Of a DNA stretch of 32,000 nt, positions 15,034-18,301 are shown one piece after another. The notes below the pieces were generated by a model that saw only the letters and a list, made by a program, of their open reading frames with translations, was not told where the DNA came from and did no database searches. Made by a program: the position numbers and the translations under genes. This stretch comes from an uncultured Planctomycetia bacterium (lineage in GTDB: Bacteria; Omnitrophota; Gorgyraeia; Duberdicusellales; 4484-171), in NCBI GenBank assembly GCA_964536865.1, contig CAZHYN010000005.1:1-32000 (forward strand). The letters are read 5' to 3'. How positions within the stretch are numbered: position 1 is the stretch's first letter; the number at the start of each line of letters is the position of its first letter.

Positions 15034-15322
15034 CCCCGCCCTTTTTATTTTCCCAAAAGAGTAAGAGTATTCTTAATCCTTTTCTTAAGATGTCCTAACG
15101 AAGAACCATACAACTTTAGCTTTTTCTCTCTACTAAAAGCATCTTTTTTAGAAAGATATGCTTCATAATATACCATCACATAATCTTTTTTAGTTTTTTT
15201 ATGTTGCTGAATCCTATCTTTTAAAGAGGAAGTAACTCCTATATAGAAGTGCCTTCTCTTAGGATTAAAAAGGAGATATACATAATACATCTTACCTCCT
15301 TTGGGTATTGAAAAGGGCGGGG
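15034..15322 (-). repeat. hairpin-bounded insertion (IVS) in the 3'-terminal domain of 23S (H98-equivalent tip), carrying a GIY-YIG ORF
   Basis: ccccgcccttttt (15034-15046) pairs with aaaagggcgggg (15311-15322). The flanking sequence aligns with the E. coli region around 2790-2800. The interior is AT-rich and almost entirely ORF. Confidence 0.75.
15045..15290 (-). CDS. small GIY-YIG (URI-domain only, YhbQ/COG2827-like) nuclease-family protein
   Basis: MYYVYLL...RHFYIGVTSSLKDRIQQHKK...YYEAY..K.DAFSREKKLK contains the GIY and YIG motifs and the conserved R/E/K pattern. RBS aaaggaggtaagATG. Same strand as the rRNA. Confidence 0.7.
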   Translation of the reverse strand: MYYVYLLFNPKRRHFYIGVTSSLKDRIQQHKKTKKDYVMVYYEAYLSKKDAFSREKKLKLYGSSLGHLKKRIKNTLTLLGK

Positions 15323-15566
15323 AGGGATCCCTAGTTTTGGGGTGAGCTTCCCGCTTAGATGCCTTCAGCGGTTATCTCCTAGGAACACGGCTACCCAGCC
15401 TTTACCGCTGGCGCAATAGCTGGTACACCGGAGGTTCCTCTGTCCCGGTCCTCTCGTACTAGGGACAGCTCCCCTTCAAGGATCCTTGCACCCACAGTGG
15501 ATAGAGACCGACAATCTGTTACTTTCTCCTACCTCAAAAGTTTTATAATTTAAGGTAGGATACTGA

Positions 15567-15671
15567 CCCAGCCTTTTTTAATTTCTATTTATCTTAAGTA
15601 AAAGATTAATCTTCTTTGCAAAATATTGAAAATAACCGCTGTTTTTTCATAGGTTGAATAAAAAGGCTGGG
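15567..15671 (-). repeat. GC-clamp hairpin insertion nested in the 3' part of the intron at 15512..16423
   Basis: cccagcctttttt (15567-15579) pairs with aaaaaggctggg (15660-15671), with an AT-rich interior. Confidence 0.65.
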
Positions 15672-15734
15672 CGGCCTGACATTTCTGTCAGACTCTCACC
15701 GTCCCCGGTGAGTTCGGACTGTATCTTCCCCACG

Positions 15735-16262
15735 CTACGTTGGGGTCTGGCGTACAGTCTCTGAGGGTTCTAGAAGGAGAAATAACTCCTTAAGTGGTAG
15801 TTTTCTATATCTACCACTGCTATTCATGGAGTGGGCGATTCTTAAAATTTTCTTTAAACCTTCAAGGGTGAGATGAAGTTTCTTCCCCATCATTCTTACC
15901 ACTTCTTTAAACTTCTCAAAATCATCTCTTTTAGAAAAAAGAGAGTATTTTTCAAAAAAAGGAATCACACGTTGTTCTAAATTCTTTAAATCTCGCACCA
16001 CTAACACCCAAGTAAGATCATAGGGATTTCTGGAATGATTAGGTTTAATATACCCACAACCAAGATGTCTCTGGATTAACTCCAACACTTCCTTACGGTT
16101 ACGGTGCTGACACACATGAAACTCAGGAATAACCTGAATTCCTAATCTCACATTCTTACTTCTCTGGATAGAAATGGAGAAACTTCCCTCGCCATCTACA
16201 AAACCGGCGATATAATCGCCCCACTCTCCTTCTAGCCTTCCCTGCTGGTTATCTGCACCCAT
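15735..16262 (-). CDS. single-motif LAGLIDADG homing endonuclease
   Basis: YIAGFVDGEGSFSISI LAGLIDADG motif near the N-terminus, about 175 aa (I-CreI/I-CeuI size class). RBS aggag. Located inside the intron on the rRNA sense strand. Confidence 0.8.
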   Translation of the reverse strand: MGADNQQGRLEGEWGDYIAGFVDGEGSFSISIQRSKNVRLGIQVIPEFHVCQHRNRKEVLELIQRHLGCGYIKPNHSRNPYDLTWVLVVRDLKNLEQRVIPFFEKYSLFSKRDDFEKFKEVVRMMGKKLHLTLEGLKKILRIAHSMNSSGRYRKLPLKELFLLLEPSETVRQTPT

Positions 16263-16566
16263 ATATTTTTACTCCTGACTACTCACCACCCTATTATTTC
16301 AAAGTGGTCCCTTAAAAAAGGGAATCTCTATAGAATAGCATATAGAGACTGAATAATCAAGTAGTAATATGGGATACTCAGACTTCCCAGCATATAGCCA
16401 GATTTATAGACAGCACGGTTCGTACTGTCTCACGACGTTCTGAACCCAGCTCACGTACCCCTTTAACCGGCGAACAGCCGGACCCTTGGGAGCTTCTCCA
16501 CCCCCAGGATGGGATGAGCCGACATCGAGGTGCCAAACCGGGCCGTCGATGTGAACTCTCGGGCCC

Positions 16567-17070: not shown

Positions 17071-17444
17071 CACCTTAATCTTGGTGTTTCCACCAAGGGT
17101 GGACTATACCTTCACCCCACCCTTTCTATCCACGCAAATTAATTGAAACTGAGTAATTTTTAAGATACTTAACCAAACGAAAATATCCTCTTCCTCTTAA
17201 ATTAGGTGTTTAGAAAGAGTGGGGGCCGGCGTATTAGCCATCCTTTAATTTGAGTTCTTAGAACTCATAAGATGGCTCCCTTCCCTTAAAAGAGAAGGAG
17301 TCTCTACGGGGTCATCAAGGAAAAAATTCCCTTTAGACTTCCCTCGGGATTACCCAGTATTCTCAAAAGAATCCTTAGGGCTTTCCCGATATGAGCCGGT
17401 GTTTCATCCCAATTTGCATTGGGAAGGGGCAAGTTTAAAAACTT
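17071..17444 (-). mobile_element. ORF-less group I intron in 23S after U1951-equivalent (GUCGGGU|AAGUUCC)
   Basis: Exon ...tagtcgggt | aagtttttaaacttgccc (P1 helix with U-G at the splice site) ... gaaggtatagtcc ... gattaaggtg | aagttccgacccgcacgaa. The intron ends in G and has no ORF. Confidence 0.7.
17115..17245 (-). repeat. GC-clamp hairpin insertion nested in the intron at 17071..17444 (immediately 5' of the aaggtatagtcc element)
   Basis: ccccaccctttcta (17115-17128) pairs with tagaaagagtggggg (17231-17245). The single non-Watson-Crick position is a G-U wobble only in the rRNA-sense transcript. Confidence 0.65.
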
Positions 17445-17499
17445 ACCCGACTAGGAATTTCGCTACCTTAGGCATTCCTTTCGGAATGGACCATATCTT

Positions 17500-17600
17500 T
17501 CCCGCCCTTTTTACTCACCCAAACTAACTTTATTTAAACTCATTTTGAGACTCTTTAGTTTTTTGTCTACTCTTACCTTGTGAATTTAAAAAGGGCGGGA
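17500..17600 (-). repeat. GC-clamp hairpin insertion nested in the intron at 17473..18260, overlapping the 3' end of the LAGLIDADG ORF
   Basis: tcccgcccttttt (17500-17512) pairs perfectly with aaaaagggcggga (17588-17600). Confidence 0.65.
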
Positions 17601-18132
17601 CCTGGCGTATGGTCTCTGAGGATCCCAAGGAGGAGAGAATTTCTCTTAAATTATATTTGCGTTGTTTTCCTTTATCATTCATACTGCAAGCAAGTTTTAC
17701 TATTGCTTTAAATCCTTCCAGAGTATGATGATCTTTTTTTTCCATTCTCTCTATAATTTGACTAAATTTGAGAAAATTTTCCCATTTGTCAGTTAAGAGT
17801 TTATATTTCTTAAAAAAAGGTAAGATCTTCTCTTTCAGTGTGCGTCTTTCTGAGATGCAATATACATAAGTGTTACTCTTAGGTGATTTAGGTTTAATAT
17901 ATCCTGCCTGAAAAAATTTTTTAAGTAACTCCAAAAGGTGGATATTTTTTTTATGCTGATAAACCTGGAAACAGGGGTCTATCACCCAGCCAAACTTTGC
18001 TGTAGGCAACTTCTTTATAGAAACACTGAAAGAACCTTCTCCATCTACAAATCCTGCGATGTAGTAACTTAGATATTTTCTCTTTGAAGGTAAACGCTGA
18101 AAACAAAGATTATCTTTGAATTCATAAAGCAT
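17530..18132 (-). CDS. single-motif LAGLIDADG homing endonuclease
   Basis: YIAGFVDGEGSFSVSI motif. The likely start is MLYEF (ATG 18130-18132), preceded by aaggagggg. Paralogous to 15735..16262, including DNA-level similarity around ctggcgtaYRgtctctgagg. Confidence 0.8.
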   Translation of the reverse strand: MLYEFKDNLCFQRLPSKRKYLSYYIAGFVDGEGSFSVSIKKLPTAKFGWVIDPCFQVYQHKKNIHLLELLKKFFQAGYIKPKSPKSNTYVYCISERRTLKEKILPFFKKYKLLTDKWENFLKFSQIIERMEKKDHHTLEGFKAIVKLACSMNDKGKQRKYNLREILSSLGSSETIRQVPPFLNSQGKSRQKTKESQNEFK

Positions 18133-18259
18133 TGCCCCTCCTTGGTTTCCTGCTGGTAACTCCTCTGTAGGAATTCTCACCTTCTCGGTACCCTACAGAT
18201 TTAGGAGTGTCCCAGCATATAGCCAGGTTTTACAACGGCCCTGCTCTTTTTTCAGAGTC

Positions 18260-18301
<42 letters not shown>

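Follow-up and report, generated by a model that had tools for sequence, protein, structure and literature searches.

A group I intron with a LAGLIDADG endonuclease gene at position 2604 of an Omnitrophota 23S rRNA gene: very probably a site-specific lineage, not a copy of its neighbour

When a single 23S rRNA gene carries two group I introns with related endonuclease genes, has one of them given rise to the other within that gene, or has each arrived as a member of a lineage tied to its own insertion site? The question is raised by a stretch of 32,000 nucleotides (contig CAZHYN010000005.1, positions 1 to 32,000; here called the window) from an uncultured bacterium of the phylum Omnitrophota, in which the 23S gene is interrupted by three group I introns, named L1923, L1951 and L2604 after the Escherichia coli positions that precede them. 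The L2604 and L1923 introns both encode LAGLIDADG proteins, 43% identical over 159 amino acids (aa), and an initial annotation, made from the sequence of the window, had already recognised the L2604 element as the third group I intron of the gene and its endonuclease gene as a relative of that in L1923. Here, we describe the L2604 element as what is very probably a mobile, P2-less, L1923-like group I intron (probably of the IB4 type) inserted between U2604 and U2605, belonging to a site-specific lineage of many bacterial phyla and not duplicated from the neighbouring L1923 intron.

The insertion point was mapped by blastn of the E. coli K-12 rrlB gene (L003:42-2945) against the minus strand of the window, on which the single rRNA operon lies (the features are collected in Table 1). 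Two other E. coli references were dropped, namely a 2750-nt plasmid record that is not E. coli-like and a 3055-nt 23S sequence with an internal duplication. E. coli position 2597 (Ec2597) falls at the start of GAGACAGTTCGGTC, the last base of the 5' exon is window position 16424 (U2604) and the first of the 3' exon is 15511 (U2605); by sequence reading, each of the three introns follows a U and has a terminal G. U2604 and U2605 are presumably the pseudouridines made in E. coli by RluF and RluB. The L2604 junction lies 11 nt downstream of position 2593, and junctions at 2593 or 2596 are ruled out, since the exon sequence is unbroken up to U2604; the boundaries given in the initial annotation are exact, and the junction does not move to the canonical site 2593, a shift which that annotation had held possible. 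The joined-exon 23-mer CGTGAGACAGTTCGGTCTCTATC was found uninterrupted in 15/41 genomes of the same order, including 10/29 of the same family, and was not found in the genome of the window or in its congener; the junction is therefore fixed and the insert is optional. For the L1951 intron, the repeated AAGUU makes the junction ambiguous by sequence, and it was set at U1951 by the rule that a U precedes the intron and a G ends it.

The RNA structure was studied on introns of the same site, gathered from a sample of 401 genomes of the phylum (23 loci) and from a species-level genome collection (39/70 loci). The 40 distinct L2604 introns from which both junctions could be extracted were aligned, and the helices were named on the window sequence and then counted across the alignment. 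Over the core helices, 93.1% of the cells are paired and compensatory double changes occur in 43 of the 57 pairs, whereas only 29–41% of the cells are paired in a control in which the 3' partners were slid by one to three columns. In P1, 97.9% of the cells are paired and the guide is near-invariant, in full agreement with the pairing of GCUGUCU with AGACAGU that had been read from the window. In 29/40 introns, 4 nt or more directly before the guide are complementary to the 3' exon, corresponding to P10; this value comes from a search for the complement, used in place of a column-wise count (41% paired) which is distorted because AACCG of the window lies one column off the GACCG of 21/40 relatives. 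An unconstrained minimum free energy (MFE) fold of the 3' quarter of the intron recovers P7, P8 and P9 together with three peripheral hairpins (z -7.2), and the terminal hairpin is followed by a conserved tail, AGUAACA-N4-UG, the intron ending in ...AGAUUG/UCGGUC (here and below, a slash marks the junction).

There is no P2, in that the guide is directly followed by AUAAAU and then by P3. The 5' core strands at 16363-16401 include a 17-mer common to the L1923 intron, and the core sequence is common to L1923 introns in general, which have been typed as IB4 (PMC6125680), so that the L2604 intron is probably IB4-like. An L2604 intron of 285 nt that lacks an open reading frame (ORF) shares the core sequence of the window intron (L034:2648-2932, from another Omnitrophota genome); its score against the Rfam model Intron_gpI, 63.7 bits, exceeds the gathering value of 50. 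The window intron is the longest of the family (912 nt vs 718-807) because of two extra hairpins, one of ~107 nt in P9 (15566-15672, CCCAGCCUUUUU...AAAAAGGCUGGG) and one of ~45 nt in a P5 extension (16290-16335). Both of them are present in full only in the same-genus copy L006 and partly in L007, from the same order, in which a short hairpin replaces the long P9 one.

The product of the gene within the intron matches the Pfam family LAGLIDADG_1 (PF00961) over residues 18-122 with 80.3 bits (cut-off 23.1; E 2e-22), and its motif, YIAGFVDGEGSF, is intact, with the acidic residue kept. Against the PDB, the enzyme gives one alignment for each half of two-domain enzymes of the I-OnuI/I-SmaMI type (E to 3e-44) and aligns at full length with the single-domain proteins 5gkk, 3e54, I-Vdi141I and I-CeuI; from these two kinds of alignment the enzyme is predicted to be of the homodimeric type. 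The empty site is a pseudo-palindrome, GAGAC AGT/TCG GTCTC (made up of 16424-16431 and the first bases of the 3' exon), with its centre at the insertion point and symmetrical in 6/8 position pairs from -8 to +8, as expected for the target of a homodimer. The enzyme would represent a natural LAGLIDADG protein of single-chain length with a predicted specificity of the 22-bp class for a universally conserved sequence of the rRNA genes (rDNA).

Gene and ribozyme overlap at both ends. An AGGAG stands 9 nt upstream of the AUG, which lies within the 3' strand of P5a, and codons 2-13 traverse P5', P4' and the 5' strand of P6. At the other end, the last 14 codons (including SETVRQTPT) traverse P6', P7, J7/3 and P3' and run into P8, the stop codon UAG being located in the P8 loop. 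This overlap accounts for the conservation at nucleotide level of the regions encoding the N-terminal MxADNQQ and the C-terminal SETxRQ, as well as for the DNA similarity of the L2604 and L1923 genes near their 3' ends (P6'-P7-P3'). In fact, the ORF-less L034 intron retains the AUG-bearing P5a strand and the conserved nucleotides of the “N-terminal” region, which indicates that the overlapped stretches are ribozyme core sequences into which the ORF extended. Such dual coding, with the start in P5a, SETxRQ in P7/P3' and the stop in the P8 loop, is a clean case of mutual constraint between a gene and a ribozyme. Decaying endonuclease genes are found in otherwise intact L2604 introns, as split or frameshifted matches (L100, L067), as a truncated ORF in a 448-nt intron (L096) and with in-frame stops (G195:C5:251-549), and they are what is expected of the degeneration phase of the homing cycle.

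The distribution of the element is patchy. An endonuclease at 2604 is present in at least 23 of the 401 Omnitrophota genomes sampled, and all homologues at least 47% identical with mappable flanks lie at 2604/2605 (23 loci from the phylum and 39/70 from the species collection). In total, this intron and endonuclease lineage was found at 2604 in ~60 loci, some of which bear other phylum labels. The GenBank titles of other carriers, labels which are unreliable as they come from third-party metagenome-assembled genomes (MAGs), name Actinomycetota (including Ca. Solincola), CSP1-3 (Sysuimicrobiota), and MAGs labelled Nitrospirota and Pseudomonadota. The carriers within the candidate phyla radiation (CPR), namely Saccharimonadia, Berkelbacteria, WWE3, Amesbacteria and Gracilibacteria, have the same protein and intron family. 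One stretch of contig QNCE01000084.1 (loci L006 and L035, which coincide) comes from a relative of the same genus, titled Candidatus Omnitrophota bacterium isolate B7_G16; the host is therefore Omnitrophota and not CPR. Three third-party MAG records deposited as “uncultured Planctomycetia bacterium” (L036, L037 and L044) are the same stretches as L007, L009 and L018, which are placed in the phylum and order of the window, and their NCBI labels are probably wrong.

Does the L2604 element descend from the L1923 element of the same gene? The two introns have in common an exact 17-mer, CTGGCTATATGCTGGGA, a 21-nt block with one mismatch and, near the 3' ends of their ORFs, a 35-nt block which is 80% identical; both the 5' and the 3' similarity had been noticed in the initial annotation and are real. 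Taken with proteins that are 43% identical, and with a layout in which both introns are P2-less and have an ORF running from P5a into P8, this could speak for a recent ectopic transposition or duplication between the two elements, in either direction. However, the shared 17-mer is the P3-J3/4-P4 core, which recurs with no more than 4 mismatches in 40/40 L2604 introns and with no more than 3 in 14/14 L1923 introns from many phyla, and the DNA in common belongs to the ribozyme core that both families conserve. Furthermore, in a tree of 104 enzymes built by maximum likelihood, each labelled by its mapped site and all chosen by their likeness to the L2604 enzyme, the proteins cluster by site (19 label changes vs 48 expected from shuffling). 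The L2604 enzyme groups with the same-site enzymes L006 (99% identical) and L007 (83%), and the L1923 enzyme is sister to L024 (81%), an L1923-site enzyme from genome G299, which has the L1923 intron and an empty 2604 site. A sister relation of the two in-window enzymes is rejected by the approximately unbiased (AU) test (difference in log-likelihood, delta lnL, 190.9; p 0.00025), and the L1923 enzymes L063 (50%) and L068 (48%), from other phyla, are closer to the L2604 enzyme than is the L1923 enzyme of the window (44%). Considering the same-site relatives, the AU test and L063 and L068, there is no sign of spread within the 23S gene of the window, and we regard such an origin as very unlikely. 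Of the earlier proposal that one lineage colonised two sites of the same gene, what stands is a deep kinship, the L2604 and L1923/1917 enzymes forming one group (support of 91 in the Shimodaira-Hasegawa-like approximate likelihood-ratio test, SH-aLRT) apart from those of L1931 and L1951, whereas the relation within the gene does not hold.

Two other explanations concern the element itself. It may be a decayed relic that no longer splices, so that the 23S rRNA is fragmented at the peptidyl-transferase loop or host factors are needed, the ORF being a pseudogene or a maturase. The own score of the window intron against Rfam Intron_gpI (RF00028), 30.6 bits (E 8.6e-5), remains below the gathering score of 50, with an alignment mostly over the ORF; a weak score is expected because the 528-nt ORF inside P6 splits the model, yet it is not a pass. 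The confinement of the extra P5 and P9 hairpins to the closest relatives and the decayed ORFs of other family members (G195 with stops, L100 and L067 with split matches, L096 with a truncation) could be understood in the same way. In the window intron, however, every core helix is intact, as are the guide, the U.G pair and the terminal G, and the ORF is full length with an intact motif and has stop-free copies that are 99% identical in the same genus and 83% in another family of the order. In addition, the removal of the intron must work, because the one rRNA operon of the genome is interrupted at an essential site. On this balance a relic appears improbable, if less so than spread within the gene. 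The remaining explanation is an assembly artefact, in which the insert, or the whole multi-intron 23S gene, would be a chimera built from metagenome reads of other organisms; the host genome is a 1.29-Mb MAG of 22 contigs (94% complete), and rRNA operons are prone to misassembly. But in an independent MAG of the same genus (QNCE01000084.1) this site is occupied by the same intron, with the same peripheral hairpins and a 99% identical ORF. In the window, moreover, the exons on both sides belong to one continuous 23S, and the sequence runs on into protein-coding flanks, so that an artefact can be given hardly any weight, less than any other explanation considered here. For a member of a 2604-site lineage, the reading that we prefer, there are points which weigh on the other side: besides the low Rfam score and the origin of the genome as a MAG, P10 of the window intron has only 4 bp, the IB4-like type is assigned by architecture and by resemblance to L1923 introns, and splicing, cleavage and homing are deduced from sequence.

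In the mechanism that we propose for the L2604 intron, the guide GCUGUCU would pair with the exon sequence AGACAGU in the pre-rRNA to form P1, ending in U.G at the splice site; P10 would be formed by ACCG and the 3' exon. The P3-P9 core would then catalyse two guanosine-initiated transesterifications, rejoining GACAGU/UCGGUC and restoring the peptidyl-transferase loop. The 175-aa single-motif LAGLIDADG enzyme, as a homodimer, would recognise the intron-less pseudo-palindrome GAGAC-N6-GTCTC centred on the insertion point and may cut the empty site leaving 4-nt 3' overhangs, with repair copying the intron in (homing). The element would have reached the genome of the window as a member of the 2604-site lineage and not via duplication of L1923.

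How does this site compare with those already described? In the survey of Haugen et al. (2007; PMC1995217), LAGLIDADG introns of bacterial large-subunit rRNA genes occurred only at 1917, 1931, 1951 and 2593, and the introns and homing endonuclease genes of one site were, as a rule, each other's closest kin; the 2604 site is also absent from the listing of Nawrocki et al. (2018; PMC6125680). More recently, 2604 (designated 23IS13) has been reported among the frequent sites of LAGLIDADG_1 introns in CPR 23S genes (Tsurumaki et al., 2024, J Bacteriol; PMC11270868). The doubt in the initial annotation as to whether 2604 is a standard insertion position is accordingly borne out by the older catalogues and not by the 2024 survey. 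That survey was limited to CPR, and it described group I introns at 2604 as unreported in other bacteria and proposed site switching in general terms (PMC11270868). Within the papers that could be searched, “L2604” as an intron name and rRNA introns in Omnitrophota were not found. The window element agrees with the 23IS13 class in rRNA position, intron type and single-domain LAGLIDADG_1 ORF (~175-180 aa), and differs from it in its host, Omnitrophota, outside CPR; as 23IS13 was defined by a CPR-limited survey, this means a wider host range and not a different element. The L2604 element thus adds a host to a class known since 2024 and is not a new kind of element, and the current understanding of group I introns is unchanged by it. 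It does indicate that the intron hotspot at 2604 extends beyond CPR, with the same intron and endonuclease lineage in Omnitrophota and under several other phylum labels, and this wider host range bears on the spread of rRNA introns among small-celled uncultured bacteria.

Among introns of other sites, those at L1923 (IB4, PMC6125680; with enzymes of the I-CeuI type) are the most similar, sharing with L2604 introns the P2-less layout, a near-identical P3-J3/4-P4 and P7-P3' core, an ORF in P6 reaching into P8, proteins that form the nearest other-site group and, in the window, a location in the same gene. They differ in their target, the helix 69/71 region in place of the peptidyl-transferase loop, and in their guide (GCCGUU vs GCUGUCU); their proteins are 35-50% identical to those of L2604, and I-CeuI itself is a weak match to the L2604 enzyme (E 5e-14). 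The 5' half-sites have AC-GU in common before the cut (AACGGU/ in L1923 and GACAGU/ in L2604), and in the tree L2604 branches surround the L1923 clade. This nesting fits an old site switch between L2604 and L1923, a reading that is tentative because the enzymes in the tree were chosen by their likeness to the L2604 query. The L1923 intron of the window (17473-18260), an I-CeuI-site LAGLIDADG gene in a P2-less layout like that of L2604, has an ORF ~20 codons longer which runs through a long P8 hairpin (GUCCCGCCCUUUUU...AAAAAGGGCGGGA); no Rfam match was found for this intron at E<=1.

The introns at L2593 (with enzymes of the I-CreI/I-MsoI type) resemble the L2604 element in their site, 11 nt upstream, and in their homodimeric single-motif LAGLIDADG enzymes with a pseudo-palindromic rDNA target, but they have a different junction and belong to subtype IA3 (PMC6125680), and I-CreI derivatives are distant matches to the L2604 enzyme (E 2e-12). 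A direct functional model for the L2604 enzyme is I-ShaI, from site 23IS7 of a CPR Shapirobacteria 23S gene, a single-domain enzyme which dimerises and cuts its own insertion site (PMC11270868); it is the sole biochemically tested LAGLIDADG homing endonuclease from rRNA introns of these uncultured lineages, and it belongs to another 23S site and another clade. No assay of an enzyme of the 2604 lineage was found in the searchable literature.

We take the 22-bp target of I-CreI to span ~2586-2607, overlapping the 2604 insertion point. With an I-CreI-type target across the 2604 junction, L2593 and L2604 introns may exclude each other. No L2593 intron was found in ~45 L2604-bearing 23S genes (L005-L100), a count whose weight depends on how common L2593 introns are; L2593 junctions do occur in the phylum (L029). 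A joint reading, to which we give somewhat less than even chances, would combine these observations: L2604 and L1923 may be branches of one ancient P2-less lineage of intron and endonuclease that jumped between 23S sites, the L2604 branch being pan-bacterial beyond CPR and its target overlapping the I-CreI-type L2593 target, which would make the two introns mutually exclusive.

Table 1. Coordinates of the rRNA operon, its introns and the parts of the L2604 intron in the window; paired cells and compensatory pairs are counted over the 40 aligned L2604 introns.
Feature	Window position	Strand	Paired cells	Compensatory pairs	Remarks
16S	22836-21011	minus			
Two tRNAs					
23S	20339-14937	minus			
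5S	14848-14732	minus			
Exon block Ec1773-1924	18405-18260				blastn
Exon block Ec1924-1956	17472-17440				blastn
Exon block Ec1952-2607	17070-16421				blastn
Exon block Ec2605-2774	15511-15339				blastn
L1923 intron	17473-18260	minus			216-aa LAGLIDADG ORF
L1951 intron	17071-17444	minus			ORF-less; Rfam Intron_gpI 53.7 bits
L2604 group I intron	15512-16423	minus			912 nt; first base A 16423, terminal (omega) G 15512; exon mapping and sequence reading
P1, 5' exon strand (AGACAGU)	16424-16430	minus			E. coli 2598-2604; contributes U2604 (16424) to the U.G pair of the 5' splice site
P1, 3' strand (internal guide GCUGUCU)	16408-16414	minus			intron positions 10-16
P10 guide (ACCG)	16416-16419	minus			complementary to 3' exon CGGU (15510-15507)
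P3	16401-16397 (CUGGC) with P3' 15751-15747	minus	100%	4/5	
P4	16391-16387 (5' strand)	minus	100%	0/5	
P5	16382-16379 (5' strand)	minus	98%	3/4	
P5a	16373-16367 (5' strand)	minus	93%	7/7	
P5b	16366-16363 (5' strand)	minus	99%	2/4	
P6	16225-16235 (CUAGAAGGAGA) with P6' 15780-15770 (UCUCCUUCUAG)	minus	78%	11/11	encloses the ORF body
LAGLIDADG_1 homing endonuclease gene	15735-16262	minus			175 aa, single motif; Pfam, PDB relatives
3' catalytic core	15695-15780	minus			P6', P7, P3', P8, J8/7, P9
P7	15759-15754 with 15722-15717	minus	99.6%	2/6	
P8	15745-15742 with 15731-15728	minus	95%	4/4	
P9	15712-15706 with 15701-15695	minus	99.3%	6/7	
Peripheral 3' helices	15527-15692	minus			P9.1, long hairpin, terminal hairpin
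P9.1	~15692-15673	minus	83%	4/4	GAAA loop
Long hairpin	15672-15566	minus			
Terminal hairpin	15560-15527	minus			
3' exon start (UCGGUCUCUAUC)	15500-15511	minus			E. coli 2605 onward

The rRNA genes of the window are enlarged at further places. The 16S gene is ~290 nt longer than that of E. coli, the excess being located in three expansion segments (window 22769-22655, 22575-22396 and 21502-21401, corresponding to E. coli positions 68-101, 180-243 and 1128-1142), in none of which an intron model gave a match. In the 3' domain of the 23S, a 283-nt insertion (15037-15320) occupies a hairpin tip at Rfam model positions ~2820-2825. It is without group I features and contains an ORF of 81 aa on the minus strand (15045-15290) which matches the GIY-YIG family in Pfam (E 1.3e-9), and it fits the class of GIY-YIG-bearing rRNA insertions that are not introns, described in CPR (Tsurumaki et al., 2024; PMC11270868).

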